Origin: Woeseiaceae bacterium
GTDB lineage: Bacteria; Pseudomonadota; Gammaproteobacteria; Steroidobacterales; Woeseiaceae
Reading direction: 5' to 3'
DNA: 64,000 nt
Assembly: GCA_041574455.1 (NCBI GenBank)
Contig: JBFFOM010000006.1
Span: 1,037 to 65,036, forward strand
Program-made: the position numbers and the translations under genes
Shown: positions 24,040 through 60,837 of the stretch, piece after piece
Position numbering within the stretch: the first letter of the stretch is position 1
Layout: each line of letters starts with the position of its first letter
The notes under the pieces: model-generated
The model's input: the letters and a program-made list of their open reading frames with translations, nothing else
The model's database searches: none
Told to the model about the DNA's origin: nothing

Positions 24040-25221
24040 ATGCAGGCGACGATTCGGAATTTCCTGCGCCTCGAATCGGCCGGCGGCATCGTACTTATGG
24101 CGACGGCCGTCCTGGCTATGATTGCCGCCAACACCGGTGCCGCCGGGCTGTACCAGCTGTTCATCGAGACGCCGGTCGAGATCCGTATCGGTGCGCTGCA
24201 GATCGCCAAACCGCTGTTCCTGTGGGTGAATGACGGACTCATGGCGATTTTCTTCTTCCTGGTAGGTCTCGAGCTCAAACGCGAAATCCTCGAGGGTGAA
24301 CTGTCCCGCCCCGCTAACGTCATGCTGCCGGCCATCGGTGCCGTAGGCGGGATGGTCGTTCCGGTAGCGATCTTTATCGCGCTGAACCAGGGCGATGCGG
24401 CAGCGATGCGGGGCTGGGCGATCCCGGCCGCAACGGACATCGCCTTCGCGCTCGGCATTCTCGGGCTGCTCGGATCACGCGTGCCGGTATCGCTGAAGGT
24501 ATTCCTCGTGACACTGGCGATATTCGATGATCTCGGCGCGATCATCATCATCGCGATCTTCTACTCGGCCGATCTCTCGTTCAATGCGCTGCTCGTTGCG
24601 ATCGCCTGCCTGGCAGTGCTCGCGTTGATGAGCTGGCGGCGTGTAATGAGTATTTCTTCGTTCGTGCTCGTGGGTCTCATCATGTGGACAGCCGTCCTGA
24701 AATCGGGCGTTCATGCCACGCTGGCCGGAGTGGCGCTTGCCGCTTTCATCCCGATGCGTGACCCGTCCCAGCCCGACCACTCACCGTTGCGCGAACTCGA
24801 GCACGACCTTCACCAGGTCGTGGCATTCGGCGTGCTGCCACTGTTTGCGTTCGTCAACGCCGGCATCGATCTCGGTGGGGTCAGCGTCGCAGGCGTGTTC
24901 CACGGCGTGCCGCTGGGCATCGCGGCAGGCCTGTTCATCGGTAAACAGCTCGGCATCTTCGTTCTCTGCGCCATCGCGATCAAGCTGGGGCTGGCGCGAT
25001 TGCCGGACGGCGCGAGCTGGGGCGGGCTCTACGGCGTGTCGATCCTGTGCGGCGTCGGTTTCACAATGAGTCTCTTCATAGGGACCCTGGCCTTTGAAAA
25101 CGTGGCGCTCGACACGGCCATGGTATTTGATGAGCGCCTCGGGATCATTCTCGGCTCGCTGTTGTCCGGGATCATGGGCTACGTCGTGTTGCGTATCGCG
25201 CTGCGTAACAGGAGCGCATGA
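24040..25221 (+). CDS. nhaA: Na+/H+ antiporter NhaA
   Basis: 393 aa. FLRLESAGGIVLMATAVLAMIAANT, WVNDGLMAIFFFLVGLELKRE and the AIFDDLGAIIIIA (DD motif) are canonical NhaA. Confidence 0.95.
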   Translation: MQATIRNFLRLESAGGIVLMATAVLAMIAANTGAAGLYQLFIETPVEIRIGALQIAKPLFLWVNDGLMAIFFFLVGLELKREILEGELSRPANVMLPAIGAVGGMVVPVAIFIALNQGDAAAMRGWAIPAATDIAFALGILGLLGSRVPVSLKVFLVTLAIFDDLGAIIIIAIFYSADLSFNALLVAIACLAVLALMSWRRVMSISSFVLVGLIMWTAVLKSGVHATLAGVALAAFIPMRDPSQPDHSPLRELEHDLHQVVAFGVLPLFAFVNAGIDLGGVSVAGVFHGVPLGIAAGLFIGKQLGIFVLCAIAIKLGLARLPDGASWGGLYGVSILCGVGFTMSLFIGTLAFENVALDTAMVFDERLGIILGSLLSGIMGYVVLRIALRNRSA

Positions 25222-25721
25222 GTTTTCGGGTGTTGCACGAAGACGACTGGTCGCTGAGTCCGGCGACGGATAACGATATCGACGCCGTCATGGCCTGGTT
25301 CCCTGATGCAGAAGCAGTGAACGTGTGGGGTGGCCCGGCCTTCCGGTATCCGTTTACCGGCGAGACCTTCCGTCAAGACTGCCAGCTGGATCTGACCGAA
25401 AGCTACTGCCTGTGGGCCGCCACCGGCGGCCTCGCGGCTTTCGGCCAGAGTTATGAGCGTCACGGACGCGGCCATCTTGCCCGCCTCGTGTCCAATCCCG
25501 CGATGCGCCGGCGTGGCGCCGGCAGGCAACTGATTCGCATGATCCTGGCATCCCTGGATCAGCGCCATGGGTACGACGAGTATTCGCTGTTCGTGTTTCG
25601 CGACAACCAGCCGGCGTACCAGTGCTACCTGTCCCTCGGGTTTGTCGTTCAGGAGTATCCGAGCGACGCCCCGATGCCGGACAGGTGCTATTTCCTGACA
25701 AAGAAGAGGAGAGAACGATGA
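25218..25721 (+). CDS. GNAT family N-acetyltransferase
   Basis: 167 aa. ATGA overlap with nhaA; RRRGAGRQLI acetyl-CoA loop (R/Q-x-x-G-x-G/A). Confidence 0.75.
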   Translation: MSFRVLHEDDWSLSPATDNDIDAVMAWFPDAEAVNVWGGPAFRYPFTGETFRQDCQLDLTESYCLWAATGGLAAFGQSYERHGRGHLARLVSNPAMRRRGAGRQLIRMILASLDQRHGYDEYSLFVFRDNQPAYQCYLSLGFVVQEYPSDAPMPDRCYFLTKKRRER

Positions 25722-26104
25722 CACCGGAACTAACGAGTCTTACCTGGGTTGCCGCACTGTCGGCAATCATGTGGATTCCCTATGTTTTCAATACGATCAT
25801 GGTCCGCGGCCTGGTAGACGCCGTCGGCTACCCGGCGGATCCGAAACCGCTGGCGGCCTGGGCGCAGCGCATGAAAGCAGCGCACTACAACTCGGTGGAG
25901 AATCTCGTGCTGTTCGCGACGCTCGTACTGGTTGCGCACGCCGCCGGCGTCAGCAACGCAACTACCGTGCTCGTCTGCCAGGTCTACTTCTGGGCACGCG
26001 TCGTTCACCTCGTGTCTTACACACTCGGCATCCCGTGGGTTCGCACGTTGTCATTCGTCGCCGGGTGGATCAGCTGCGTCGCACTCCTGTTCGAACTACT
26101 TTAG
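25718..26104 (+). CDS. MAPEG family membrane protein
   Basis: Internal ATG (ATGA overlap with the GNAT stop) gives a 128-aa protein with 3-4 helices. AHYNSVENLVLFATLVL resembles the MAPEG N-x-x-E-x motif region. Confidence 0.7.
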   Translation: MTPELTSLTWVAALSAIMWIPYVFNTIMVRGLVDAVGYPADPKPLAAWAQRMKAAHYNSVENLVLFATLVLVAHAAGVSNATTVLVCQVYFWARVVHLVSYTLGIPWVRTLSFVAGWISCVALLFELL

Positions 26105-27997
26105 GAAAGATTCCTGCAGCGTTTCGAGCTCGCCCCACCGCTCGATGCGCTGCTCGAGCAGGGACTCGGTCGTGCTGAGTTCCTGGAGCTTTTCCTGTAC
26201 GAGCGCCGCGTCCCGGGTATAGAAGTCGGGCGCGGCGATCGTCTCCTGTAGTGCCGCGATGTCAGCTTCGAGCTGTTCGATCTCCGTTGGCAGGCCGTCC
26301 AGCTCACGCTGGTCCTTGTAGCTCAGCTTGTTCTGCATGCGCTTCCTGCGGCGCTCTGCGGCCTCGTTTTTCTTGCGCCCTTCCTCGTACGGGTTGTCGG
26401 TGACCGCCAGTTCGTGGCCGCGTCGTGCCCAGTCACTGTAGCCCCCCACGTATTCCTGCACTTTGCCGTCTTCTTCAAAGACGATCGTGCTCGTCACGAC
26501 GTTATCGAGGAAGTCCCGGTCATGGCTGACGACGATGAGCGTGCCCGCGTAATCGCATAGTTTCTGCTCGAGCACTTCGAGCGTTTCGATATCGAGATCG
26601 TTGGTCGGCTCGTCGAGGACCAGAAGGTTGGCGGGTCGCGTGAACAGCTTGGCCAGGATCACCCTGTTGCGTTCGCCGCCCGACAGGGCCTTGACCTTCA
26701 TCGTGGAGCGTTTGGGACTGAACAGGAATCCCTTGAGGTAACCGACGACGTGTCGATCCTTGCCGTTGAGCTTGATGTAGGTTCTTCCTTCGCCGACGTT
26801 GTAGGCAACGGATTTCTCCAGGTCGAGTTCCTCGCGCAGCTGGTCGAAATAGCCAACCTCGAGCCCGGTGCCGAGCTTCAGCGTCCCGGTCTGCGGTTCG
26901 AGTTCACCGAGCAGCAGCCGCAGCAACGTGGTTTTGCCGACGCCGTTATTGCCGATGAGACCGATGCGATCGCCGCGCATGAGCTTGATCGAGAAGTTGC
27001 TGATGACCTGCTCGTCGCCATAGCTGTAGCTGATGTTTTTCGCGCGGATGACCTTGCGCCCTGACTGTTCGGCTTCCTCGATGTGAATTCGCGCCTTCGA
27101 TTCACGCGTCATGCGTTCGGCGCGTTCCTCACGCATCTTCATCAGTGCCCGGACGCGACCCTCGTTGCGCCGGCGTCGGGCCTTGATCCCCTGGCGTATC
27201 CACGCCTCCTCCTCGGCCAGTTTCTTGTCGAATTTCACCTCGGCCGTGATCTCGTCTTCGACCGCTTTTTCCTTGCGTCTCAAGAAGTTGGCGTAGTCAC
27301 CGGGCCAGCTGGTGAGCTTGCCCCGGTCGATTTCGACGATGCGCGTTGCAAGTCGCTGCAGGAAGGCGCGGTCGTGGGTGATGAACAGGACGGCGCCGTC
27401 GTAATTGTAGACCCGGTCCTCGAGCCACCTGATCGTCGCGATGTCGAGGTGATTGGTCGGTTCGTCGAGCAGCAGCAGGTCCGGCTTCTGAACGAGTGCC
27501 TTGGCAAGGGCGACGCGCCGGCGCCAGCCACCAGACAGTTCGTTCATCTTCTTGTTGGCCGGGAGCTTCAGGTCTGTGATGATTTTCTCGACACGCTGGT
27601 CGAGGTGCCAGCCATCATGTATGTCGATCCGCGCGTGCAGTTCCTCGAGTTCGCGAAGCCCGGGCTTGTCGAGGTCAAGCTTCGACTTGCGGGCGTATTC
27701 CTCGAGCAGCGCCTCGATTTGCGTCAGGCCGTCGCGGATGACGTCGTTGACGTACTGGTCCATTGCCTCGGGCAGGTTTTGTTCGAGCTGGCTGACAATC
27801 AGGTGGTGACTGGCCGTAATCTCGCCGCGATCAGCTTCGATCTCACCAGTGATGAGACGGAATGTCGACGACTTGCCGGCGCCATTACGGCCGATCAGGC
27901 AGACGCGCTCGCCGGTCTCGATCGAGAACTCGGCGTCGCGCAGAATGAGCTGGTCGCCAAATTCGAGGCAGACATCATCGAAGCGAAGCAGTGACAT
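26096..27997 (-). CDS. uup: ABC-F family ATPase Uup
   Basis: Start moved to MSLLRFDDVCLEFGD... (633 aa). Two ABC cassettes (GRNGAGKSS and GNNGVGKTT Walker A, two LSGG signatures), a WIRQGIKARRRRNEGRVRAL linker and a C-terminal coiled coil are collinear with E. coli Uup as recalled. Confidence 0.92.
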   Translation of the reverse strand: MSLLRFDDVCLEFGDQLILRDAEFSIETGERVCLIGRNGAGKSSTFRLITGEIEADRGEITASHHLIVSQLEQNLPEAMDQYVNDVIRDGLTQIEALLEEYARKSKLDLDKPGLRELEELHARIDIHDGWHLDQRVEKIITDLKLPANKKMNELSGGWRRRVALAKALVQKPDLLLLDEPTNHLDIATIRWLEDRVYNYDGAVLFITHDRAFLQRLATRIVEIDRGKLTSWPGDYANFLRRKEKAVEDEITAEVKFDKKLAEEEAWIRQGIKARRRRNEGRVRALMKMREERAERMTRESKARIHIEEAEQSGRKVIRAKNISYSYGDEQVISNFSIKLMRGDRIGLIGNNGVGKTTLLRLLLGELEPQTGTLKLGTGLEVGYFDQLREELDLEKSVAYNVGEGRTYIKLNGKDRHVVGYLKGFLFSPKRSTMKVKALSGGERNRVILAKLFTRPANLLVLDEPTNDLDIETLEVLEQKLCDYAGTLIVVSHDRDFLDNVVTSTIVFEEDGKVQEYVGGYSDWARRGHELAVTDNPYEEGRKKNEAAERRRKRMQNKLSYKDQRELDGLPTEIEQLEADIAALQETIAAPDFYTRDAALVQEKLQELSTTESLLEQRIERWGELETLQESFLK

Positions 27998-28060
27998 GGG
28001 AAGTTCCGGGGTGTTGGCGTGTATCCTACCTGATATGAAGACCGCGAACAGGGAACGCCG

Positions 28061-28267
28061 ATGAGCGAAGAGCGTTTTGTCGAACTCGAATCGAGACTCG
28101 CCCACCAGGACCAGATGCTCCACGAACTGAACGAGGTGCTGACCTCGCAGCAGGCGCAGCTGATGCAGCTCGAGGAGCTGTGCCGCTCACTTGTTGCTCG
28201 CGTCCGCTCGCTCGGCGAGGGGATGCCGGCGGGTGATCCGGCCGACGAGCGACCGCCGCACTACTGA
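28061..28267 (+). CDS. slyX: SlyX family protein
   Basis: 68 aa coiled coil. LESRLAHQDQMLHELNEVL and the terminal PPHY are hallmarks of SlyX. Divergent from uup. Confidence 0.85.
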   Translation: MSEERFVELESRLAHQDQMLHELNEVLTSQQAQLMQLEELCRSLVARVRSLGEGMPAGDPADERPPHY

Positions 28268-28290
28268 TTTGCGACATGCATTAACCCCGG

Positions 28291-28318
28291 TTCCACGCCT
28301 GCTGCGTTGGCGTATAGT
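28291..28318 (+). promoter_or_regulatory. Putative sigma70-type promoter for the 1347-aa ORF
   Basis: TTCCAC (28291-28296), a 16-nt spacer, then TATAGT (28313-28318), 26 nt upstream of the ATG. GGAG lies about 9 nt before the start. Pattern match by eye only. Confidence 0.3.
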
Positions 28319-28343
28319 GTCAGTGTAGAGCCGGAGAAAAACG

Positions 28344-31300
28344 ATGTCGCATAAACTCAGGCTGATCGCATTCGCGATACTGTTCTTTGCGGGCCTTGCC
28401 CATTCCCAGGATTACATTCCCGACGAGCTCGAAGGCTGGCAGCAGTGGGTGCTGCATGACAAGGCCTGGCGGGAATGCCCTTTCTATTTTGACCGTAGCG
28501 CGGCGGAGCGCGGCGATTTCGTGTGCGTATGGCCTGGCGAATTGTCACTCGACGTCAGCGCCAGCGGTGGGCGCTTCTCTCAGGCCTGGACCGTGTACGG
28601 TGAGAACCAGTGGGTCGCGCTGCCAGGCAGTGAGCGCCACTGGCCGGACCGCGTTACGGCCAACGGTCGTGACATTGAGGTCATAAGCCGCAATGGTGTG
28701 CCGAGTGTCAGCCTGGCCCCGGGGCGCTGGCAGCTTGCCGGGCGCTTTGCCTGGGACGAGCGCCCGGGCGTCCTGCGCATTTCGCCACTGAGCGGACTTC
28801 TTGACCTGACCGTAGACGGCGCTGCCGTCGACCGCCCCGACATGAATCGACGGGGCGTATTCCTTGGCGAGCGCGAGGAGGACACGCGCGAAGCCGATGA
28901 AGTGAGCGTCGACGTCTATCGCCTTGTCCAGGATGGGGTTCCGACCGAGCTGCTTACGTTCATGGAGATCGACGTTTCAGGCGGTGTTCGCGAAGAAGAA
29001 TTCGGCCCGGTCCTGCCCGACGGCTTCATTCCCATGGACCTGGTCAGTGACTTGCCGGCACGACTTGAATCGGATGGCAAGCTGCGTCTGCAGGTGCGGC
29101 CGGGTACGTGGGAGATCCGGATCTCGGCCCGCGCTCAGGGTGTTCTCGATGAAATCGTCGCGCCGCCGACGGGCGCCAACCTGCCGGATACAGAAATCTG
29201 GAGTTACCAGTCGAACAATGTGCTCCGCATAACGGCGCCCGAAGGCCTGCCACCTGTGGACCCGTCGCAGGTCTACGTGCCGGAAGACTGGATGGCGCTC
29301 GCCGCCTTCCGCATCGAGCCTGGCTCTGTATTGACGATTGCGGAACGTAGCCGTGGCATGGTTTCGGCCAGCAATGAGCTGCACCTGGACCGCACGATGT
29401 GGCTGGATTTCGCGGGGGACGGGTTTGTCGTTAAGGACGCCGTCAGTGGCAACATGATCACGGACTGGCGCCTCGATCTGGGTGCGCCTTACGCATTGTT
29501 GTCCGCGACAGAATCCGACGAAAGCTTGCTCGTTACGCAGGGCGAGGAGCCGGACAGCACTGGCGTCGAGCTACGTCAAACAGACGTCGAACTGGAGGCG
29601 ATCGGTCGCAGCGAGACACGCGGCCGGATGCCCGCAACGGGCTGGCGCACGCGATTCGCTTCCGTCGTTACGGATCTGAATCTGCCACCCGGGCATAAGC
29701 TCCTGGCAGCCCCTGGCGTGGACAATGCGCGCGGCAGCTGGGTAGAGAACTGGGCCCTGCTTGACTTCTTCCTTGTGCTGATTATCACGATCGGCGTTTG
29801 GCGCCTGTTCAATCCGGTGGCCGGCATCATCGCCTTGCTGGCACTGGTGCTTGGTTTTCACGAGATGCTGGCGCCGAGATGGCTGTGGCTGAACCTGCTC
29901 ATAGCGATCGCATTACTGCGTGTGGCACCACCGGGCAGGTTGTTCCGGCTGGTGCGTGGCTATCAGCTCGTCAGCGCCGTGCTGCTCATTATTGCGCTGG
30001 TCCCGTTCATTGCCGCCCAGGTGCGCATTGCCATCTACCCGCAGCTCGAACCGCAGTTCGCGCGCCCGGCCGTAATGTATGACATGGCAGAGCCCGCCGC
30101 AGTCAGGCCGGACGAGGCGGCGCAGCGAGAGCGTGCTGCAGCGATGAAGGTGGCGCCTGAGAGCGACGTGGTGCTCGAGGAGATCGTGGTCTTGTCCACG
30201 AAGAGGGCGTATTCATTCAGTCGTTACGCGCCGAATGCCATTGTCCAGGCGGGACCCGGGATCCCGGCGTGGCGTTGGAACTCGTACCGGCTGGAGTGGA
30301 GCGGCCCGGTCGACCCCGAGCAGTCAATGCGCCTGGTCGTCCTGCCGCGATGGGCCGTAACGATTATGCGCTTCCTGCTGGTCGCGGTGACCGGGTTGTT
30401 TGCTGCGATCCTGGCGGCCGAGATCGTGAACCGGCGCTGGCGATTGCCCGGCGGATTGACGCTGGGACGACCCGGCGGAGCAAGCGCTGCGGCGCTCGTA
30501 TGTCTGGCCCTCGGGCTGTCGACCGGCGAACCGGCTGTTGCCGAAATGCCGGACAAGGAACTTCTGCAGCAGCTCGAGCAGCGATTGCTCGAGCCGCCCG
30601 CTTGCGTGCCGCGATGTGCGGAGATTGCGGGAGCCACGGTCGATGTTGGCCTCGAGTCAGTCAGGATGGATCTGTCCATCCACGCCAGCGAAGAAGTGGC
30701 GATACCGCTACCGGGATCGGCGAAAGGCTGGCGGCCGACGTCCGTGCTCGTCGACGGTGCCGGGAATACCCGGGTCCTGCGCGGCGCACGCGGTGCGCTC
30801 TGGATCTACGTTACGCCGGGACGTCACCAGGTCTCCCTTGCTGGCGGAATCCCGGCTGTCGACAGCCTCGAGATAGCGTTTCCGACGCCGCCGCGGGTCG
30901 TCGAAGCCAGGGCGAATGGCTGGATGATTACGGGTATCCAGGATCGTCACCTGCCGTCAGGCTCGCTGCAGTTGACGCGTCTGCAGACAGGCGGTGACGA
31001 CGCAGTACGCTGGGAAAGCAGCCGATTTCCGGTGTTCGTGCACGTAACGCGAAGAGTCATGATGGATCTTGACTGGACGGTAGCGACGTTCATCGACCGG
31101 GTTGCGCCCGACGTTGGGGCGCTAACGCTCGAGGTGCCGTTGCTGGACGGCGAATCTGTCGTGAGCGGTGATTTCCAGGTCGAGGATGGCAAGGTGCTCG
31201 TCACGATGGGTCCGAGCCAGGAATCAGTAAGCTGGAACTCCAGGCTGCCACTGACATCGCCGCTGCTGCTGCGCGCCCCCGAAGGGGAGTTCTGGACAGA

Positions 31301-32387
31301 GACCTGGCATTTCGGTGTCGGCAGTATCTGGAATGTTTCGTTCTCCGGCGTGCCGGAGAGCAATGCGGACAATTACAGCAGTGGCGCTCGCCGCACCGAG
31401 TTTGCGCCCAGGGCGGGTGAGGAGCTTGTCGTCACTGCGACGCGGCCGGAAGCCAACGCGGGTTCAACACTCGCTTTCGACGCCGTCGATATCAAGGTCA
31501 CGCATGGCAATCGCAGCAGCGACGTCGAACTGAAGCTCGATTACCGTAGTACTCGCGGTGCGCAACATGTTGTCCGCCTGCCGGCCGACGCCGAAGTGAC
31601 GTCGGCCAGGATCGATGGTCAGAACCAGACCCTGCGCGCAGAGGACGGCGAGTTGACGTTGCCCATATTGCCCGGCGAACACACGGTAGAGATTGCGTGG
31701 CGTGCACCTGGCGGAATGGGATTCAGAACCTGGTCACCTGAAGTTGATCTTGGCGCGCCGGCCGGCAATATCCGGACGAGCCTGTCACGCCCTTCCGATC
31801 GATGGCTGATTGCCACGAGCGGCCCGCAGCTCGGCCCCGCCGTGCTCTACTGGACCGAGCTCGTCGTGCTGCTGCTTGCGGCCGTTATTCTCGGTCGCAT
31901 TCGCCTGGTGCCGCTCGCAACCTGGCAGTGGGTCATCCTTGGCCTCGGTTTCAGCACGTTCAGCTGGGCGGCGCTCGCTGCGGTCGTGGTCTGGCTGTTC
32001 GTCTGCGGTGCGCGCGAGCGTTTCGGCGTCGCTGCACTCAACTGGTGGCAGTTCAACCTCCTGCAGGTGCTTATCGTCGGGCTGACAGTCATAGCGATGC
32101 TGTCCATCATTTCGGCGTTGCCGCAAGGCTTGCTGGGTACGCCAGACATGCACGTGGTCGGCTATGGGTCGCGCGCCGCGCTGCTCAGCTGGTTTGCAGA
32201 TCACAGCGTCGCGGTCCTGCCGCGTGCGTCCCTCATCACGGTTCCGATGTGGATCTACAAAGTGTTGATCCTGGCCTGGGCCCTGTGGCTCAGTTTCGCG
32301 CTGGTGCGCTGGTTGCCCTGGGCCTGGAACTGCTTCACGCGCGATGGTTTCTGGCGCCAGCGGAATGAGGTGAGCGACATCACGTGA
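28344..32387 (+). CDS. Very large (1347 aa) exported polytopic membrane protein of unknown function
   Basis: Uninterrupted ORF with local codon bias. N-terminal signal peptide MSHKLRLIAFAILFFAGLAHS, hydrophobic helix clusters at about aa 468-560, 668-727 and 1165-1325, and large soluble regions between them. I recognise no catalytic motif. Confidence 0.85.
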   Translation: MSHKLRLIAFAILFFAGLAHSQDYIPDELEGWQQWVLHDKAWRECPFYFDRSAAERGDFVCVWPGELSLDVSASGGRFSQAWTVYGENQWVALPGSERHWPDRVTANGRDIEVISRNGVPSVSLAPGRWQLAGRFAWDERPGVLRISPLSGLLDLTVDGAAVDRPDMNRRGVFLGEREEDTREADEVSVDVYRLVQDGVPTELLTFMEIDVSGGVREEEFGPVLPDGFIPMDLVSDLPARLESDGKLRLQVRPGTWEIRISARAQGVLDEIVAPPTGANLPDTEIWSYQSNNVLRITAPEGLPPVDPSQVYVPEDWMALAAFRIEPGSVLTIAERSRGMVSASNELHLDRTMWLDFAGDGFVVKDAVSGNMITDWRLDLGAPYALLSATESDESLLVTQGEEPDSTGVELRQTDVELEAIGRSETRGRMPATGWRTRFASVVTDLNLPPGHKLLAAPGVDNARGSWVENWALLDFFLVLIITIGVWRLFNPVAGIIALLALVLGFHEMLAPRWLWLNLLIAIALLRVAPPGRLFRLVRGYQLVSAVLLIIALVPFIAAQVRIAIYPQLEPQFARPAVMYDMAEPAAVRPDEAAQRERAAAMKVAPESDVVLEEIVVLSTKRAYSFSRYAPNAIVQAGPGIPAWRWNSYRLEWSGPVDPEQSMRLVVLPRWAVTIMRFLLVAVTGLFAAILAAEIVNRRWRLPGGLTLGRPGGASAAALVCLALGLSTGEPAVAEMPDKELLQQLEQRLLEPPACVPRCAEIAGATVDVGLESVRMDLSIHASEEVAIPLPGSAKGWRPTSVLVDGAGNTRVLRGARGALWIYVTPGRHQVSLAGGIPAVDSLEIAFPTPPRVVEARANGWMITGIQDRHLPSGSLQLTRLQTGGDDAVRWESSRFPVFVHVTRRVMMDLDWTVATFIDRVAPDVGALTLEVPLLDGESVVSGDFQVEDGKVLVTMGPSQESVSWNSRLPLTSPLLLRAPEGEFWTETWHFGVGSIWNVSFSGVPESNADNYSSGARRTEFAPRAGEELVVTATRPEANAGSTLAFDAVDIKVTHGNRSSDVELKLDYRSTRGAQHVVRLPADAEVTSARIDGQNQTLRAEDGELTLPILPGEHTVEIAWRAPGGMGFRTWSPEVDLGAPAGNIRTSLSRPSDRWLIATSGPQLGPAVLYWTELVVLLLAAVILGRIRLVPLATWQWVILGLGFSTFSWAALAAVVVWLFVCGARERFGVAALNWWQFNLLQVLIVGLTVIAMLSIISALPQGLLGTPDMHVVGYGSRAALLSWFADHSVAVLPRASLITVPMWIYKVLILAWALWLSFALVRWLPWAWNCFTRDGFWRQRNEVSDIT

Positions 32388-33115
32388 GACGGATGACGGT
32401 TACGGTTGCAGCGGCATCGGTGCTGCTGACGGGCGGTCTTGCGACGGCTGCCGAGTGCGTCGTGTTGCTCCACGGCCTGTCGCGCTCATCCCTGTCGATG
32501 AACAAGATGGAGCGCGAGCTGATTGCGGCCGGATTCGTTACGGCCAATATCGACTATCCGTCGCGCGAGCACACGGTCGAGGAACTGGCCGGGATGGCGG
32601 TGGCCCAGGGTATCGAGGCGTGCCGTGCCCTCGAGGATGTGGAGACGATTCACTTCGTCACGCATTCGCTGGGCGGCATTCTCCTGCGGCAGTATCTCAG
32701 CGAGGAAAACGTCATGGAGCTGGGCCGCGTCGTCATGCTGGGACCGCCCAACCAGGGAAGTGCGGCCGTCGACATACTGGGTGACCTGCCGGGTTTCGAC
32801 TGGGTCAACGGACCTGCCGGCCGTCAATTGGGGCAGGGCGACGACAGTGTGCCGTTGCGCCTGGGGCCCGCCGACTTCGAGCTCGGGGTCATCGCGGGCG
32901 ATCGCACGATCGATCCCGTGACCTCGGCCGTGCTGCCGGATCCTGACGATGGCAAGGTCTCGGTCGAGGACACGAAGCTCGAAGGGATGGCCGACTTCGT
33001 CGTTGTGGGGCACTCGCACGCGTTCATGATGCGCATGCGCAAGGTCATAGACCTCACAATCGAGTTTCTGAGATCAGGGAGTTTCGGTAACCACAGCGGG
33101 GGCGTGACGAGCTAG
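32384..33115 (+). CDS. Secreted alpha/beta hydrolase (lipase/esterase-like, COG1075-type)
   Basis: GTG overlaps the upstream TGA as GTGA; an alternative ATG lies at 32393. Signal-like MRRMTVTVAAASVLLTGGLATA, then VVLLHGL and the HSLGG nucleophile elbow, then MLGPPNQGS. Confidence 0.82.
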   Translation: MRRMTVTVAAASVLLTGGLATAAECVVLLHGLSRSSLSMNKMERELIAAGFVTANIDYPSREHTVEELAGMAVAQGIEACRALEDVETIHFVTHSLGGILLRQYLSEENVMELGRVVMLGPPNQGSAAVDILGDLPGFDWVNGPAGRQLGQGDDSVPLRLGPADFELGVIAGDRTIDPVTSAVLPDPDDGKVSVEDTKLEGMADFVVVGHSHAFMMRMRKVIDLTIEFLRSGSFGNHSGGVTS

Positions 33116-33138: not shown

Positions 33139-35991
33139 TCAGGATGCGGTCTTGCGCTCCTTCGTTGCAGGTTTGAGCAGCGGCTTCAGGTACTCTCCGG
33201 TAAACGAACCCCTGGTCGCGGCGACCTCCTCGGGTGAGCCCGCGGCAATAATGCGCCCGCCACCGTCACCGCCTTCAGGGCCGAGATCGACGATCCAGTC
33301 GGCCGTCTTGATGACGTCGAGATTGTGTTCGATCACGACCACGGTATTGCCGTGGTCGCGCAGTCGATGCAAAACGCCGAGCAGCTGCTCGATGTCGTGG
33401 AAGTGCAGTCCGGTCGTTGGTTCGTCGAGGATGTAGAGGGTGTTGCCCGTATCCCGCTTCGAGAGTTCCTTGGCGAGTTTGACCCGCTGGGCCTCGCCGC
33501 CCGACAACGTTGTCGCATTCTGCCCGAGCCGAATATAGGTGAGGCCGACGTCGGTCAGTGTCTGCAGCTTGCGGGCTACGACAGGTACGTTCCTGAAGAA
33601 CTCCGCTGCGTCCTCGACCGTCATCTCGAGCACCTCGTGGATATTCTTGCCTTTGTAGCGTATTTCGAGCGTCTCGCGGTTGTAGCGCTGGCCACGGCAG
33701 ACGTCACAGGGAACGTACACGTCCGGCAGGAAGTGCATTTCGACCTTGATGACGCCGTCGCCCTGGCAGGCTTCGCAGCGGCCGCCCTTGACGTTGAAAC
33801 TGAAGCGGCCGGGCAGATAACCGCGTGAGCGCGCCTCCTGGGTGCCGGCAAACAGTTCGCGAATCGGCGTGAACAGGCCACTGTAGGTCGCGGGATTCGA
33901 GCGTGGTGTGCGCCCGATCGGGGACTGCGAAATATCGATGACCTTGTCAATGTGCTCGAGGCCCTCGACGGCGTCATGGGGCGACGGGTTGCGTGCCGTG
34001 CGGTGCAGTGTCTCGGCGACGGCCTTGTAAAGCGTGTCGTTGACCAGCGTCGACTTACCTGACCCCGACACCCCGGTGACGCAGGTCATCAGGCCGACCG
34101 GGATCTCTGCGTCGACCGCCTGCAGGTTGTTGCCTGTTGCGCCCAGAACGCGGATCTGTCGGTCCGGATCGGAGGGCGTGCGCCTGGACGGTACCTCGAT
34201 CGCGCGCTTGCCCGACAGGTACTGGCCGGTCAGGGACCGTGACTCTTTCTGGATTTCTTCCGGCGGCCCCGCGGCGACGACGCGGCCGCCATGCACGCCC
34301 GCGCCCGGGCCCAGGTCGACGACGTGGTCGGCAGAGAGGATGGCTTCCTGGTCATGCTCGACGACGATCACCGTATTGCCGATGTCCCGGAGGTGGGTCA
34401 GTGTCCCGAGCAGGCGCTTGTTGTCGCGCTGGTGCAGGCCGATCGATGGTTCGTCGAGGATATACATGACGCCGACGAGGCCTGAACCGATCTGGCTCGC
34501 GAGCCGGATTCGTTGCGCCTCGCCGCCCGACAGTGTTTCTGCACTGCGGTCGAGCGACAGGTAATCGAGCCCGACGTCGGAGAGGAATGCGACGCGATCG
34601 GAGATTTCCTTGAGGACTTTTTCTGCGATGGTTGCGCGCCAGCCTTCGAGCTGCATCGTGTTGAAGAACTCCCGCACGTGACCGACCGACAGCCCGGTAA
34701 TCTCGGGTAAGGAGTGATTGTCGATGAACACGTGGCGCGCGGCCCTGTTGAGGCGAGTGCCGTCGCAGTCGGGGCAGGCCTGGCTGTTGAGGAACCTCGC
34801 GAGTTCCTCGCGGACAGCGCTCGACTCGGTCTCCCGATAGCGTCGTTCGAGGTTGGGCAGCACACCTTCGAAGCGATGTGTCTTGCGCACCTGCATACCG
34901 CGCGAGTTGGCATAAAAGAAGTCGATCTTCTCCTTGCCGCTGCCGTACAGGACGATGTTCCGGAGATTCTCGGCCAGTTCGTTGAACGGAGTCTCGATAT
35001 CAAAGCCGTAGTGCTGCGCCAGGCTCTGGATCATCTGGTAGTAATAGGTGGTCTTGCGGTCCCAGCCGCGGATGGCGCCGCCGGCGAGCGACAGCTCCGG
35101 GTTGACGACGACGCGCTCGGGATCGAAGTACTGCTTGACGCCGAGTCCGTCGCAGCCCGGGCATGCGCCTGTCGGGTTGTTGAAGGAAAACAGGCGGGGT
35201 TCCAGTTCGGTCAGGCTGTAACCGCAGATGTTGCAGGCGAAGCGATCGGAAAAAGTGATCTCCTCGGCTTTCGCGTCGTCCATGTACGCGATCTTCGCCA
35301 CGCCATCGGCCAGTCGCAGTGCCGTCTCGAACGACTCGGCCAGCCGCAGCCGCAGGTCCTCCTTGACCTTGAAGCGGTCGACGATGGCCTCGATCGTATG
35401 TTTCTTCCTCAGATCGAGCTCAGGTGGCTGGTCGAGCTCGTAGATTTCACCGTCGATCCGGGCGCGGATAAACCCCTGCGCCTGCAGGTCGGCCATGAGC
35501 TGTACGTGCTCGCCCTTGCGCTCCGCGATCACGGGCGCCAGTAACATGAGCCTGGTGTTCTCGGGGAATTCCAGCACGTGGTCGACCATCTGGCTGACGG
35601 TCTGGGCTTCGAGCGTGATGTTATGGTCCGGACATTTTGGCGTTCCCGCGCGGGCGAACAGAAGGCGCAGGTAGTCGTAGACTTCGGTCACCGTGCCGAC
35701 GGTCGAACGCGGGTTGTGGGACGTGGACTTCTGCTCGATCGAGATCGCCGGCGACAGGCCATCGATGTGATCGACGTCCGGCTTCTCCATCATCGACAGG
35801 AACTGGCGCGCGTAGGCCGATAGGGACTCGACGTAGCGCCGCTGTCCCTCGGCATAAATCGTGTCGAAGGCGAGCGAGGACTTGCCCGACCCCGACAGCC
35901 CGGTAAACACGATCAGCTTGTCGCGCGGGAGCGAGAGGTCGAGGTTCTTGAGGTTATGGGTCCTCGCGCCTCTGATGTCGATGGTTTTCAT
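33139..35991 (-). CDS. uvrA: Excinuclease ABC subunit A
   Basis: Start moved to [53 protein letters not shown] (950 aa). Two ABC modules and Zn-finger Cys clusters, canonical UvrA. Confidence 0.97.
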
Positions 35992-36059
35992 GCGCCGGGT
36001 ACTGAAAGACGAACAACCTGCTAATATACGCCGCCGCGCATCCGCGGCGCAAAGGAACC

Positions 36060-37256
36060 ATGACTTTGGAATCGGAAAGGCCTGACGGCATCGGACTGTA
36101 CCCATCTGAACGCCGTTCGGTGGGCATACTCGCGTCCGTTGCCGTCATTCGCATGTTCGGCTTGTTCGCGCTGTTGCCGGTGCTGTCCCTTTATGCCGCC
36201 GACCTCGAGGGCGGGACGGTGTTCCTGGCCGGCTTTGCGGTCGGGGCGTATGGCCTCACGCAGGCGGGACTGCAGATACCGCTGGGCGCGCTGTCGGACC
36301 GGATCGGTCGCCTGCCCGTCATCTACGGAGGGCTGGCGATTTTTGCGGCTGGCAGCATCGTCGCCGCGCTGTCTGATTCAATCTACGGCGTCATTCTTGG
36401 CCGCCTGCTGCAGGGCGCGGGCGCAATCTCGGCGACGTTGACAGCGATGATTGCTGATGCGACCCGCGAGGAAGTCAGGACGCGCGGCATGGCGATCTTC
36501 GGCGTGGGCATCGGCATCGCGTTCTTCGCCGCTGTGGTTGCCGGCCCCCTGATAGGGGCGCGCTTCGGCGTTTCGGCCCTGTTCTGGCTTGCTGCCGTCC
36601 TTGCGGGCGTCGGGGCATTGCTGCTGCGCGGCCTGCCGGACGTGCCGAGGCCTGCGGCCAGGGAGAACTGGAGTGTTCGGCCGGCATTTCGTGCCGACCT
36701 GTTGCGCATGGATTTCTACGTGTTCGCTCTCCACGTGATCATGACGGCAACCTTCGTGGCTTTGCCATTCCTGCTCGTCGATCGGCTGGAGATGCCGCTC
36801 ACGGATCACTGGAAGATGTATATCGGCGCCATCGTCGTGTCGCTCACGATGACCATTCCGATGATCCTGCAGGACCGACACCAGGGCCGTGGCGTGCTTA
36901 TCGGCCTGGCTGTCACCATGATCATCCTCGCGCAGGTCGGGTTGACGTTCTTCGGTTTTGCCACGTGGTCGGTATTCCTCGCGTTGGTCATCTACTTCGG
37001 TGGGTTCAATTTCCTGGAGGGCGCGTTGCCGGCGAGATTATCCATCCTTGCGGACAACGACGTGCGGGGCGCATCGCTCGGCGCATACTCGACCGCCCAG
37101 TTCTTCGGCGCCTTCGTCGGCGGCCTGATCGGCGGCCGCTTTCTCGGGCAGGGCCGACCCACCGACGTTTTCTTCGTCTGCGCCCTGATTGCCGGTATCT
37201 GGCTGGCATTGGAGGGTTTCGGGCGTTTTCGGGCAGAAAATCACGCTGGCAATTAG
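36060..37256 (+). CDS. MFS transporter
   Basis: 398 aa with about 12 helices. [12 protein letters not shown] is the MFS motif A. It sits between divergent uvrA and ssb, as in Pseudomonas genomes by my recollection. Confidence 0.85.

Positions 37257-44247: not shown

Positions 44248-47202
<2,955 letters not shown>

Positions 47203-55514: not shown

Positions 55515-55518
<4 letters not shown>
54922..55518 (+). CDS. maf: Maf-like nucleoside triphosphate pyrophosphatase
   Basis: 198 aa, TTG start. LASTSPRRREIL and KAGAYAIQG motifs. Confidence 0.9.
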
Positions 55519-56993
<1,475 letters not shown>

Positions 56994-57000
56994 GTAAGCG

Positions 57001-60000
57001 ATGAAGCAGCTGCTGCGGAAACTGTTTTCGATTCTGGCCTATACGGCCGCGACGGTCGTGATCCTGATGGCTGTCGTCGTCGGCCTGTTCCGCCTGTTCC
57101 TGCCGCGGCTTCCCGAATACCAGAACGAGATCAAAGCCTGGGCGAGCGATGCCATTGGTATCGGGGTCGAGTTCTCTGGCATGAATGCCCGCTGGGGTCT
57201 GAGCGGCCCCGAGCTCGAATTCTATGACGGCGAACTGATGCGGCCGGAAAGCCAGGCGCGCCTGCTTGCAGCCGATCGCGTCCGCATTGGTATATCCGTC
57301 GGGAGTCTCGTGTTTGATCGGTCTTTAGTGGTTGATCACGTTTTCATCAGTGACACCTCGATCGAGGTACGCCAGCTCGAAGGCGGCGACTGGTGGCTGC
57401 AGGGCTCACCACTCAGTGAGCTGGTGCCAGAAGGCGGAGGTGTGGCGCAGCAGCCGACCGCATTCGATCTGGTGCTTGAAGATGTAGAGGTCGTGTTCCT
57501 GCAGGCCGGTGCCGAGCGGCCGCGCGAGTTCCTGGTGCCACGCGCGATTGCGAGCATCGACCAGAACCGCATTGCCGTGGATGCACTTGTTCGCCTTCCC
57601 GAGGATCTCGGGCGGCAGGTCGAATTCTCCGCGACGCGGCTGGTGAATATCCCGCAGGAGGAGCGTGGCTGGGACGTCAGTGTCGAGGCCGACAACGTCG
57701 ATCTTTCCGGGTGGTCCGACCTGCACGAGTTCCCCGGCCGGCGCTTCCTCTCCGGCGGTGGCGATCTGGAGCTGTCGATGGCGATCGCGGCGGGTGAATT
57801 GGTCAATGCCACCGGCCAACTCGAATTCGTAAATATCTCCACCGTTGAAGGGCAGCTGTTTGACCTGGCCGGTCGCTTCGAACTGGACGTGGCGACGGAC
57901 GGCTGGTTCGTCGAGGTGGATCAGCTCACGGTTGCAACCGACAATCATGAATGGCCCGAGAGCAGCCTGCGGGTCGAAGCCAGTGTCGACGAAGACGACA
58001 ACATTGTTGTTCTCGCGATGGATGCAACGTACGCAGACCTGGGTGACGCCTCGCTGCTATTGCCGTGGCTTGCAGCTGACCAGCAGCAGCAATTGCTGGA
58101 CCTCGGTCTCGACGGAATCGTTCGCGATCTGGACGTCACGATCTACAACCTCGATAGCGAGACACCGAGTTTCGACGTCGAGGTCGAGCTTGATCGATTC
58201 GGCATCGCCCCGCTGGGCAAGCTGCCTGGCGTCCGCGGCTTGTCGGCAATAGTCAGTGCCAGTCGTGAGAGCGGCCACATCGACATTGCGTCCGTCAATA
58301 TGCAGCTCGAGCTGCCGACCGCCCTCGACATCCCGGTGCAGATCGACGAACTTGCCGGCGCGATTACCTGGCGCAGCGACGCCAGTCGCACGCTGGTACT
58401 GACAGACCGGATCACGTTCACGACCCCGTTTTTCGACAGTCGCAGCGATGGCGATCTCACGATCGATCACGCGGGTGGTTCGCCCGCAATAAACCTCGAC
58501 ATGAGTTGGGGCATCAGCGACCTGGCGGAGGCGCGCCGCTACGTGCCGCGGCGGGTCGTGAAACCGAAGCTTTATGACTGGTTCCAGCGCGCGCTCGTGC
58601 GCGGCAGCGTTCGTCGCGGCACGATGCGCCTGAGCGGACCGCTCGACAAGTTCCCGTTCCGCAACGGCGAGGGCAGGTTCCTCATCGAGGGTTCCGTGCG
58701 TGGCATGACGATGCAGTACGACCCGAAATGGCCGGCGGCGCGCCAGGCAGACATCGAGCTCGTTCTGGACAACACGCGCCTGTACTCTGTCCGCAATCGC
58801 TCCACCCACGCCGGTAACCTGGCCGTCAACGCCAATATTGAAATTGCAGATCTTTCCAACCCGATCCTGACGATCGACGGGCTCATCACCGGGACGCTGG
58901 CTACGCTTGGGGAGTATGGCCGGCAAAGCCCGATCAATCGCTTTACGGGCGGAAATCTCGAGAAACTGACGCTCGACGGTGATGCCTCCGTACAACTCGA
59001 TCTCGACGTCCCGCTCAGGGCTTCGCGCAATACGACGGTGAATGCGCTCTTGCGCAGCAATGGCGGATCGTTGGCTATCGAAGGGCTGGGTGCGCCGTTG
59101 ACCGACCTGATCGGCGAGATTCTGATTACCCGTGAGGCGATTACGGGCGAATCCCTGGGCGCTCGTTTCCTGGGAGAGGATGTCGAACTGCGCATCGGTC
59201 CCGGGGCGGATGCCGGGATCTTTGCGGTCGCCACCGCGACAGGCATTGCGCCCGCCACCGGTATCGTCGAAGAACTGGGTCTGCCAATCGACGGCATCAT
59301 CGAGGGGGCTGCGCCATACGAAGCGCGTATCCTGTTCCCGCGAGGCGGGGAAGACGAACGGCCACCCTTCACGGTGCGTATTGCCACGCCGTTGCGCGGC
59401 ATGGCACTGCATCTCCCCGAGCCCCTGGGCAAGGCCGCGGATGAAGCGATGCTGCTCCGCGGCGACATTCGCTTTTCTCCCGGGGGCGATCGCATTGAGA
59501 GCTCCGGCTTCGCGGACAGGGACATTGCGTGGGACATCAGCTTCGTAAAGCCTGAGGGTACCTGGGAATTCGATCGAGGCGTCATCATGGCGGGCGGTGG
59601 CACGATTGAACCCGCCGACACGCGCGGATTACACGTGCGCGGGCGTACCGAGACATTGCGCCTGGACGACTGGCTCAACGTGTCGCGCTCGCGCGCTGAG
59701 ACGGCCACCGCGGCCCTGAACATTCGCTCGGTCGACATGTTGATCGATAACTTTTTTGCTGTCGGCCAGCACCTCGTGGGCCACCGCGTGCGCGTGGATC
59801 GCAGTGCGCTTGACTGGCTGGTCCAGGTTGAAGGCGAGGACGTCACGGGCTCCATCTTCGTGCCATACGATTTTGGCTCGGATCGCGCCATGGTCATCGA
59901 AATGGACCGCATGCGTTTGCCGGGTGACGAAGTCTCGGAGAAGACATCAACGGCACTTGATCCGCGCAAGATTCCGCCAATCACGCTGAAAGCCGCCGAG

Positions 60001-60837
60001 TTTGCGCTGGGGGACCGGTATCTCGGCAAGGTTGATGTTGAACTGGTGCGCACCGAGGGCGGGCTGGCGACGGAGAAACTGGAGGCCGTCGATGAAACCT
60101 TCCAGATCGTCGGCTCGGGTACGTGGCTGGTCGATGAGAACGAGGAACTCGGCAGTCGCACAAGCGTTACGGCAACACTGAACAGCACCAATGTCGGCGC
60201 CACACTGCGGCGCCTCGATTTTGCGCAGGGCGTCACCGGTGAGTCGATGGGAACCCTGTTCGACATGAGTTGGGGTGGAGGTCCGCGCGCGGACTTTCTG
60301 GCGCTGCTCGATGGCAATGTAAAGATTCGCCTCGAGAACGGCCAGCTCGAGGAAGTGGAGCCGGGTGCCGGACGAATGCTCGGCCTTGTCAGCTTCGTTG
60401 CGCTGCCGCGCCGCCTGTCGCTCGATTTCCGCGACGTCTTCAACAGGGGCTTCAGTTACGACCGCATTGAAGGGTCGTTCGAGGTAAAGGACGGCATCGC
60501 ATCCACCTGCGACCTGTCGTTACAAGGGCCGGCAGCAGATATCGGCATCGTCGGGCGCGTCGATCTCGACAACGAGATCTACGAGCAGGGTGCGGTTATC
60601 AGTGCCAACGTCGGTAATACACTGCCGTTGGTCGGCGCTGTGGTCGGCGGACCGCCGGGTGCCGCAGCCATGCTGATCTTCTCGCAGATCTTCAAGAAGC
60701 CGCTGGCCGAAGTCGGGCAGGTGTACTACGCGATGTCGGGGGCCTGGGACGAACCGGCGATCGAGTCCGTATCATCCAGCCGCTTCGTCGACTATGGCAG
60801 ATTGGCAGGGTGTATTGCCGATGCAGGGCAACAATAA
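57001..60837 (+). CDS. yhdP: YhdP/AsmA2-family large envelope protein (phospholipid transport associated)
   Basis: 1278 aa, with a single N-terminal TM (ILAYTAATVVILMAVVVGLF) and a long beta-rich body. Conserved maf-rng-yhdP-tldD neighbourhood. Confidence 0.85.
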   Translation: MKQLLRKLFSILAYTAATVVILMAVVVGLFRLFLPRLPEYQNEIKAWASDAIGIGVEFSGMNARWGLSGPELEFYDGELMRPESQARLLAADRVRIGISVGSLVFDRSLVVDHVFISDTSIEVRQLEGGDWWLQGSPLSELVPEGGGVAQQPTAFDLVLEDVEVVFLQAGAERPREFLVPRAIASIDQNRIAVDALVRLPEDLGRQVEFSATRLVNIPQEERGWDVSVEADNVDLSGWSDLHEFPGRRFLSGGGDLELSMAIAAGELVNATGQLEFVNISTVEGQLFDLAGRFELDVATDGWFVEVDQLTVATDNHEWPESSLRVEASVDEDDNIVVLAMDATYADLGDASLLLPWLAADQQQQLLDLGLDGIVRDLDVTIYNLDSETPSFDVEVELDRFGIAPLGKLPGVRGLSAIVSASRESGHIDIASVNMQLELPTALDIPVQIDELAGAITWRSDASRTLVLTDRITFTTPFFDSRSDGDLTIDHAGGSPAINLDMSWGISDLAEARRYVPRRVVKPKLYDWFQRALVRGSVRRGTMRLSGPLDKFPFRNGEGRFLIEGSVRGMTMQYDPKWPAARQADIELVLDNTRLYSVRNRSTHAGNLAVNANIEIADLSNPILTIDGLITGTLATLGEYGRQSPINRFTGGNLEKLTLDGDASVQLDLDVPLRASRNTTVNALLRSNGGSLAIEGLGAPLTDLIGEILITREAITGESLGARFLGEDVELRIGPGADAGIFAVATATGIAPATGIVEELGLPIDGIIEGAAPYEARILFPRGGEDERPPFTVRIATPLRGMALHLPEPLGKAADEAMLLRGDIRFSPGGDRIESSGFADRDIAWDISFVKPEGTWEFDRGVIMAGGGTIEPADTRGLHVRGRTETLRLDDWLNVSRSRAETATAALNIRSVDMLIDNFFAVGQHLVGHRVRVDRSALDWLVQVEGEDVTGSIFVPYDFGSDRAMVIEMDRMRLPGDEVSEKTSTALDPRKIPPITLKAAEFALGDRYLGKVDVELVRTEGGLATEKLEAVDETFQIVGSGTWLVDENEELGSRTSVTATLNSTNVGATLRRLDFAQGVTGESMGTLFDMSWGGGPRADFLALLDGNVKIRLENGQLEEVEPGAGRMLGLVSFVALPRRLSLDFRDVFNRGFSYDRIEGSFEVKDGIASTCDLSLQGPAADIGIVGRVDLDNEIYEQGAVISANVGNTLPLVGAVVGGPPGAAAMLIFSQIFKKPLAEVGQVYYAMSGAWDEPAIESVSSSRFVDYGRLAGCIADAGQQ

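Follow-up and report, generated by a model that had tools for sequence, protein, structure and literature searches.

An internally duplicated envelope protein of a widespread, unannotated bacterial family and its lineage-specific hydrolase neighbour in a Woeseiaceae bacterium

The window analysed here, a stretch of 64,000 nucleotides (nt) from contig JBFFOM010000006.1 of a Woeseiaceae bacterium (assembly GCA_041574455.1), carries at positions 28344-33115 a real two-gene transcription unit of a Woeseiaceae-like gammaproteobacterium. The first gene encodes a polytopic inner-membrane protein of 1347 amino acids (aa), hereafter the large protein, that belongs to a very widespread family annotated by no library. 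The second encodes a small and ordinary alpha/beta hydrolase, predicted to be Sec-exported and to employ a Ser95-Asp-His triad. Both open reading frames (ORFs) lie where a first-pass annotation of the same DNA had placed them, and the overlap that it had described is readily seen in the sequence, where the GTG start of the hydrolase overlaps the TGA stop of the large ORF as GTGA, in support of translational coupling of the two genes in this genome. Its proposal of a ribosome-binding site holds as well, with GGAG 7 nt before the ATG and a CCGGAGA kept in relatives. The elements of the transcription unit are the following.

28344-32387, plus strand: large ORF, ATG start, 1347 aa
32384-33115, plus strand: hydrolase ORF, GTG start, 243 aa
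28333-28336, plus strand: Shine-Dalgarno GGAG, 7 nt 5' of the ATG of the large gene, read from the sequence
28282-28322, plus strand: conserved promoter-like element, from the aligned intergenic regions of 28 syntenic loci

A word-indexed search returned more than 1250 relatives of the large protein, of which the best 120 are all full length and 59-65% identical to it; none of these 120 has a Pfam domain, all the protein names given by their sources read "hypothetical protein", and the few source organisms named are Woeseiaceae and other gammaproteobacterial metagenome-assembled genomes (MAGs). An exhaustive HMMER scan of residues 1-1200 against 1.84 billion cluster representatives matched 3443 clusters at 50% identity with E<=1e-3 and 1700 with E<=1e-30, nearly all of the top 150 being 1330-1410 aa long and aligned end to end, at identities down to about 32-33%. 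Among the GTDB species representatives 520 of 599 pattern matches were confirmed, which makes at least 520 species with a relative; nearly all of the relatives are full length, and they are spread over Gammaproteobacteria, Myxococcota, Desulfobacterota, Acidobacteriota and Nitrospinota. Among the members and loci, the latter searched for with a 13-sequence alignment, are those of Woeseiaceae, Azotimanducaceae, Steroidobacteraceae, Ectothiorhodospiraceae, Mariprofundaceae, Lentisalinibacter salinarum, Methylobacter luteus and other Methylococcales, Teredinibacter, Nannocystis, Archangium and other Myxococcota, Thermodesulfobacteriota, Acidobacteria, Nitrospinales and Rhodospirillales. One member lies on a contig of an Asgard MAG labelled Promethearchaeota archaeon (L067, JAIWHJ010000146.1). 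Upstream of the gene, this contig and one of a Thermodesulfobacteriota MAG (L071, P0159 cluster) have almost the same sequence, and the member is probably a contaminant of the bin, not an archaeal homologue. In a Woeseiaceae MAG (L055:1161-5197) two ORFs of 594 aa and 863 aa, which overlap, take the place of an intact large gene, and this reflects either a frameshift pseudogene or an assembly error.

None of the profile searches places the large protein in a characterised family. In particular, the window copy has no match in Pfam, NCBIfam, PADLOC or the sequences of the PDB, the family profile finds nothing among PDB sequences at E<=10, and a permissive Pfam/NCBIfam scan of 35 diverse members yields nothing recurrent except weak matches to BiPBP_C, a generic Ig-like domain, in 4 of the 35 at 3e-3. 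As regards anti-phage defence, neither the large protein nor the hydrolase matches any PADLOC model, and literature searches that covered hypothetical proteins of Woeseiaceae, ribophorin homologues in bacteria, DUF2238/YjdF and fbcH turned up nothing about the family. The first-pass annotation, which recognised no named family in the protein, was therefore right on that point; its term "orphan" is apt in the sense of unannotated and misleading in the other sense, since the family counts 3443 clusters. The large protein is new in that it is without a characterised relative or a known function, which is not the same as a demonstrated new mechanism.

High-GC DNA yields long spurious ORFs, and one of them is found in this very window: an 829-aa ORF on the minus strand (44260-46749), with no Pfam match, runs antisense to leuS (44287-46737, plus strand) and is a spurious high-GC ORF. 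The length of an ORF is thus by itself no evidence of a gene here, and the large ORF could be imagined to be a chance open frame of the same kind, or a decaying pseudogene. This idea is refuted by conservation, and its probability is negligible: thousands of full-length homologues are found down to 32% identity, with invariant residues over the whole length, and the domains modelled by AlphaFold2 are confident. The GC fraction of the gene pair (0.62-0.66) is in line with that of the surrounding DNA, and terminator-like sites within the large ORF are at chance level (6 found vs 3.3 +/- 2.1 expected).

The anatomy of the large protein was drawn from two AlphaFold2 models, covering residues 1-740 (mean predicted local distance difference test, pLDDT, 76.5) and residues 441-1347 (mean pLDDT 79.1), in combination with hydropathy and family alignments. 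From the N- to the C-terminus, and with a slash marking the predicted point of cleavage here and below, its parts are as follows, transmembrane being abbreviated as TM.

28344-28406, plus strand: N-terminal Sec signal peptide, aa 1-21 (AHS/QD), n-h-c layout
28407-29738, plus strand: periplasmic module 1, aa 22-465, AlphaFold2 pLDDT mostly 80-94
29739-30035, plus strand: TM helices 1-4, aa 466-564, by hydropathy and AlphaFold2
30036-30347, plus strand: periplasmic segment between TM4 and TM5, by AlphaFold2 and conservation profile
30348-30428, plus strand: TM helix 5, aa 669-695, poorly conserved, by AlphaFold2
30429-30542, plus strand: internal signal-peptide-like segment, aa 696-733, by family alignment
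30543-31823, plus strand: periplasmic module 2, aa 734-1160, paralogue of module 1, by hhalign and AlphaFold2
31824-32384, plus strand: C-terminal membrane domain, aa 1161-1347, by hydropathy and AlphaFold2

The N-terminus, MSHKLRLIAFAILFFAGLAHS/QD, is a Sec-type signal peptide; the cleavable signal peptide suspected at first sight is upheld by its n-h-c layout and by the AxA/Q site, which homologues retain across the family. Module 1 is all-beta and consists of about three beta-sandwich subdomains. The first membrane cluster is made of helices 472-488, 491-504, 512-527 and 532-564, with an R-rich cytoplasmic loop (526-540) and a conserved periplasmic turn, HE(506-507)xxAP. After residue 564 come a YPQLE motif, a disordered and variable linker (573-641) and, ahead of TM5, a small conserved beta element (629-668) with the sequence VQxGPGxPxWxW. 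TM5 is followed by a short Arg-rich loop (695 to about 712) and a hydrophobic helix (about 709-731), which lead into module 2, the second all-beta region. The C-terminal domain has TM helices at 1168-1185, 1193-1203, 1208-1227 and 1234-1263, a periplasmic beta hairpin (1264-1301) with the motifs PDM and WFxD1286, a last TM helix (1302-1332) and a basic, Trp-rich tail (1334-1347). The alternation of soluble regions and helix clusters noted in the first-pass annotation is accordingly reproduced, with helices within 472-564, 669-731 and 1168-1332 and all-beta regions at 22-465 and 734-1160. The positive-inside rule, applied to the R-rich loops 526-540, 696-705 and 1186-1190 and to the C-terminal tail, places the modules, the linker and the hairpin in the periplasm, and from this we infer an N-out, C-in topology with about 11 membrane spans and both modules periplasmic. 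The cytoplasmic parts are tiny and poorly conserved, nearly all the mass of the protein being periplasmic.

The two halves of the large protein are related to each other. Specifically, a profile-profile alignment of family sub-alignments shows residues ~57-488 to be homologous to residues ~754-1186 (hhalign probability 97.9%, E 4.8e-13, 405 columns, 18% identity); BLASTP of the N-terminal against the C-terminal soluble region finds no repeat, and no similarity is detectable between the two TM clusters (probability 0.6%). The order of the elements is equal in both halves, namely a signal peptide, a module, four helices, a periplasmic beta element and one helix. Gene 1 is, in other words, an ancient tandem duplication of one unit, signal peptide included, where the unit consists of a signal peptide, an all-beta periplasmic module of about 430 aa and about 5 TM helices, and the duplication gives the protein a pseudo-dimeric architecture. 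The duplication, the internal signal peptide described below and the size of the family had all escaped the first-pass annotation. Single-module relatives are absent from the 6764 ORFs of the fetched loci, where only fragments occur (L052 and L055), and the window contains no paralogue of the large gene or of the hydrolase.

The segment that opens the second half has the layout of a signal peptide, with an n-region NRRWR, a hydrophobic h-region and a c-region AVA/E in which A733 occupies position -1. All 42 aligned members have a basic n-region, a hydrophobic h-region and a c-region that ends in small-x-Ala before module 2, and the sequence after the site, (D/E/Q)xPxxxLLxxLxxRLxxxxCxxxC, mirrors that of the mature N-terminus, QxxxPDxLxxWxxWVLxxxxxxCPxxxC. 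In an alignment of 48 sequences A733 never varies, yet the surrounding helix and cytoplasmic loop rank with the least conserved stretches of the large protein. In a sample of 128 representatives at 50% identity or less, the 10 residues before module 2 contain A-x-A in 66% of cases vs 9.4% of random windows, and [AGSV]-x-A in 89% vs 23%. Signal peptidase I is likely to cut at this internal site, whose AxA motif is kept throughout the family, so that one gene would give rise to two chains. A comparable case is the cytochrome b/c1 precursor FbcH of Bradyrhizobium, from which one gene reportedly yields two membrane proteins by means of an internal signal peptide. The likeness lies in a polytopic precursor with an internal signal peptide and its AxA site ahead of a periplasmic domain; the proteins are unrelated, and for the large protein cleavage is a prediction from conservation.

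Conservation extends along the whole large protein. Invariant residues include the cysteines C45 and C61 of module 1 (28476-28526) and C754-x3-C758 of module 2 (30603-30617), the charged or polar residues R193, D197, R216, E284, D306, D365, R376, E409, R411 and D460 and, in the C-terminal half, R903, R919, E937, S966, R1153 and D1286, in addition to about 15 tryptophans, or about 30 when the nearly invariant ones are counted. To judge from the sequence, the cysteine pairs fit periplasmic disulfide bonds; as an alternative, metal binding or redox activity is conceivable for the CxxxC of module 2. The C-terminal membrane domain is the most conserved part of the family. Conservation has its peaks in the last TM helix and in periplasmic elements close to the membrane: TM10, the hairpin, the YPQLE loop and the pre-TM5 element rank at the top, and at the bottom are the linker, TM5, the cytoplasmic loop and, apart from its AxA site, the internal signal peptide.

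This profile opens the way to the main rival of the interpretation developed below, namely that the large protein is a membrane enzyme or transporter whose substrate would be a lipid-linked precursor of the envelope in the periplasmic leaflet (for instance a polymerase, ligase, glycosyltransferase or flippase), with the beta modules as carbohydrate-binding arms. TM10, the hairpin with its PDM motif and D1286, the YPQLE loop, the H506-E507 turn and the pre-TM5 element would then be parts of its core, the many invariant tryptophans would be in keeping with it, and the lack of cytoplasmic domains means that any activity must be in the membrane or the periplasm. The conservation profile allows such a function, but fold and profile searches give it no support: no GT-C, Wzy/O-antigen-ligase, RND, MOP or ABC-permease fold is among the top 50 Foldseek matches of either model, the permissive scan of 35 members found no Pfam or NCBIfam match to suggest one, very few invariant polar residues lie within the TM helices, and sugar or lipid biosynthesis genes do not recur nearby. 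We regard an enzyme or transporter as unlikely, though a serious contender.

What the fold comparisons bring forward is a different protein. When searched with Foldseek against the PDB, both halves independently have as their top match Ost1/ribophorin I, a non-catalytic subunit of the eukaryotic oligosaccharyltransferase (OST), with a Foldseek probability of 1.0 (N-terminal half: 8agb_E 1.7e-6, 7oci_A 5.3e-6, 6c26_1 7.7e-5; C-terminal half: 6c26_1 3.8e-8, human ribophorin I 6s7o_E 7.3e-8, 8agb_E 2.6e-6). To go by the models, the layout of the large protein resembles that of Ost1, with a signal peptide, about 400 aa of tandem beta-sandwich outside the cytoplasm and then a membrane anchor; Ost1 has one module and one TM helix, as against two modules and some 11 TM helices here. 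In the OST, Ost1/ribophorin I is thought to hold a polymer, either glycan or unfolded polypeptide. The models suggest a resemblance at the level of a multi-domain fold, which is no proof of homology, and the gene neighbourhoods of the non-syntenic loci described below show no partner of the STT3/AglB/PglB type. The next matches are the N-terminal beta-domain of M1 aminopeptidases and leukotriene A4 hydrolase (LTA4H), mu-adaptin, integrin legs and alpha-2-macroglobulin. The match to the M1 aminopeptidase/LTA4H N-domain (Foldseek probability 1.0, 4.4-5.8 A over ~150-170 residues) spans one subdomain only, and the large protein is without the catalytic HExxH domain of those enzymes.

AsmA-like proteins such as YhdP and TamB are similar to the large protein in being about 1300 aa long, in the envelope and mostly periplasmic. 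They have one anchor and a beta-taco groove, whereas the large protein has about 11 TM helices and beta-sandwiches; an AsmA-like identity was rejected on the number of its helices and on the lack of any Pfam match to YhdP, AsmA or DUF490. The window has a full-length YhdP of its own at 57001-60837 (AsmA-like, Pfam E 3.5e-205), directly downstream of an RNase E/G family gene (55515-56993), and the large protein is therefore not the AsmA-like protein of this genome. YhdP is an ordinary, known envelope lipid-transport protein.

The hydrolase passes two Pfam thresholds, both narrowly (Palm_thioest, 29.7 bits vs a cut-off of 26.8; Abhydrolase_6, 29.7 vs 26.3). It has an HG oxyanion motif (H30-G31), a nucleophile elbow H94-S95-L-G97-G98, with the S95 codon at 32666-32668 of the plus strand within HSLGG, and an acid and a histidine downstream in the order Ser-Asp-His; H30-G31, H94-S95-L-G97-G98, D188/D189 and H210/H212 are invariant in 145 close homologues. 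Its signal peptide covers aa 1-22 (ATA/AE), and an N-terminus made of M-R/K-R, about 12 hydrophobic residues and AxA, followed after the cut by A, D or E and then CVVLLHG, is found in the window copy and in 23 of 24 aligned orthologues. A22 and the cysteine pair C25/C80 (32456 and 32621) are invariant, which together with the signal peptide fits a periplasmic, disulfide-bonded hydrolase. Public gene calls begin the protein at the ATG at 32393, giving 240 aa (P0340); the GTG start is favoured by the M-K/R-R N-termini of the orthologues. The names given by its sources, which are automatic, disagree (pimeloyl-ACP methyl ester carboxylesterase, triacylglycerol lipase, lysophospholipase), and its best match among PDB sequences, the monoacylglycerol lipase 6qe2, is not significant (E 0.13). 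It most resembles the small, lid-less secreted alpha/beta hydrolases (Abhydrolase_6, Palm_thioest and DUF676/COG1075-type esterase-lipases), with which it has common motifs and a mature size of about 220 aa. The earlier assignment as a secreted serine alpha/beta hydrolase is confirmed by the elbow, the HG motif, the Asp and His residues, the signal peptide and the Pfam scores, and with it the view that both products of the locus are envelope proteins.

The two genes had been taken for a dedicated module, in which the large protein and the hydrolase would form an envelope lipid- or polymer-remodelling machine, the scaffold recruiting the esterase or presenting substrate to it. The GTGA overlap, the export of both products and the conserved element that precedes the pair speak for such a machine, as does an arrangement that is kept in 24 related loci. 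The distribution of the hydrolase gene does not follow the family, however. In 83 related loci, whose flanking ORFs were all clustered, a hydrolase homologue lies near the large gene in the same 24, in addition to the window, and all 24 belong to a Woeseiaceae subclade that keeps most of the uup/slyX/uvrA neighbours. Co-location therefore matches the synteny of the whole region exactly and is inseparable from inheritance. In 50 non-syntenic loci from many phyla the hydrolase is adjacent in none (BLASTP 1e-3; family hidden Markov model E<=1), the one weak match in that set being an unrelated 392-aa protein 5.6 kb away (L046), and the full architecture of the large protein occurs in thousands of lineages without the hydrolase.

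Moreover, the usual order in the subclade is large gene, DUF2238 (a YjdF-like membrane protein of about 200 aa) and hydrolase, so that another gene normally stands between the two, the start of DUF2238 overlapping the stop of the large gene (e.g. L001:12059-12667). YjdF of B. subtilis is, we assume, a different protein from the E. coli YjdF to which DUF2238 refers. The window and L029 are without DUF2238, no remnant of which is detectable in the window; L013-L017 keep DUF2238 and have no hydrolase despite 3.3-8 kb of downstream sequence, and L036 keeps the synteny with neither gene. In the 50 non-syntenic loci, all-against-all clustering and Pfam scans of the genes directly on either side of the large gene bring out no shared partner, a Pfam family recurring in 3 of 46 neighbours at most. 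Across phyla, then, the large gene stands alone, with no conserved partner; hydrolase and DUF2238 joined it in one Woeseiaceae subclade only, and this genome later lost DUF2238. The pair is a lineage-specific local operon and not a conserved module, adjacency being confined to the window's own lineage; on the terms that the first-pass annotation had itself set, this goes most of the way to refuting the module, and a two-component machine is accordingly quite improbable.

The 76-nt spacer between slyX and the large gene is strikingly conserved in the subclade, although the proteins are only 55-65% identical. In the window it contains TAACCC (28282-28287), 17 nt, CGTTGG (28305-28310), CG, TATAGT (28313-28318) and GTC. 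The consensus of 28 syntenic slyX-to-large-gene regions is TAACCC-N17-CGTTGAC-GTATAGTGTC, and the conserved element of the spacer can also be written TAACCC-N17-CGTTGAC-G-TATAGTGTC, with CCGGAGA and then the ATG behind it. The strict motif, TAACCC-N16-18-CGTT, also stands upstream of the gene in the non-syntenic loci L040, L057 and L058; L070 fits only the looser pattern AAC[CT]-N17-20-CGT. The window has a single copy of the strict motif; elsewhere in the loci the motif lies almost only inside genes, and chance would give about 0.01 matches per upstream region. The conservation of this element indicates that the large gene has its own control element, and supports the first-pass view that the pair has a promoter-like element of its own. 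As for the promoter then proposed, TTCCAC-16-TATAGT, its -10 TATAGT (28313-28318) is conserved and its -35 TTCCAC (28291-28296) is not, and a sigma-70 scan does not call the site.

The spacing AAC...CGT suggests, from its sequence, a promoter of the extracytoplasmic function (ECF) sigma class, and this bears on a further reading, in which the large protein would be a periplasmic holdase or quality-control factor of the PpiD/YfgM kind, driven by an ECF sigma factor and working at the Sec translocon or under envelope stress. It would agree with a stand-alone gene that has no pathway context, and with a fold resembling Ost1, which sits beside the translocon as part of the translocon-associated OST. 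However, this is pure analogy, the promoter class is a candidate one, no chaperone or peptidyl-prolyl isomerase domain was found in the protein and no sigma/anti-sigma pair nearby; a holdase of this kind seems very doubtful.

As for the surroundings of the pair, slyX and the convergent uvrA, named as its flanking genes from the start, are both confirmed by Pfam, which also recognises an MFS transporter further along.

26096-28123, minus strand, divergent: ABC-F gene (Pfam)
28061-28267, plus strand, same strand as the large gene: slyX (Pfam)
33139-36105, minus strand, convergent: uvrA (Pfam)

Upstream of the ABC-F gene lie a MAPEG-family membrane protein (25622-26104) and an NhaA antiporter (24040-25221), both ordinary; NhaA is present in the relative L003 too, and the MAPEG gene was not seen in the relatives examined.

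Taken together, the best explanation of the locus as a whole combines a duplicated family, processing, a scaffold platform, an accessory esterase and ECF-type control, and we put it forward tentatively, its chance of being right in all these parts falling somewhat short of even. According to this explanation, the internal signal peptide would be cut by signal peptidase I, yielding two chains that may associate as a pseudo-symmetric heterodimer. The large protein, with no enzymatic activity of its own, would serve as a membrane-anchored periplasmic platform for binding or scaffolding, which, on the outer face of the inner membrane, may hold a polymer of the envelope, either a glycan or an unfolded polypeptide. 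The esterase would be an accessory of this lineage and may act on the same substrate, and the TAACCC-N17-CGTT element could place the large gene under the control of an alternative, ECF-type sigma factor.

Several observations weigh against this explanation. The scaffold role is argued by analogy, from resemblance of fold, no gene nearby being informative about function, and that resemblance is itself open to a plainer account: template-modelling scores of the Ost1 matches are only 0.10-0.27, with root-mean-square deviations of 17-32 A; the match could reflect a generic similarity of tandem beta-sandwiches, seeing that integrin legs, mu-adaptin and M1-peptidase N-domains score too; and the Ribophorin_I Pfam profile has no match at E<=1 in 35 members, so that a profile link is missing. 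The predicted template-modelling scores of the two AlphaFold2 models, 0.46 and 0.59, indicate moderate confidence. The high conservation of TM10 and of the juxtamembrane loops fits a catalytic or transport core equally well. An uncleaved signal-anchor would explain the hydrophobic segment before module 2, and would explain less well the invariant Ala at -1. Finally, the likeness of the upstream element to ECF promoters was judged by eye only. A bolder version, in which the modules are true distant relatives of Ost1, the precursor is cut at A733/E734 and the paralogous chains form a pseudo-symmetric complex of about 10 TM helices with two arms, is for the present improbable.

The anatomy of the large protein, with the duplication of a whole unit, a probable internal signal-peptidase site and Ost1-like modules, can now be put to the test, in a family that is broad and reaches sediment, methanotrophic, myxobacterial and sulfate-reducing lineages. 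A survey of 2016 came upon no promising homologues in prokaryotes for the non-catalytic subunits of the OST, Ost1 included (PMC4973528). If both the processing and the kinship with Ost1 were true, the large protein would represent a bacterial counterpart, and possibly an evolutionary source or an analogue, of an OST subunit that was not traced to prokaryotes in that survey. The finding would then bear on the way in which multi-chain membrane complexes can be made from one bacterial gene, and on the origin of the accessory subunits of the OST.

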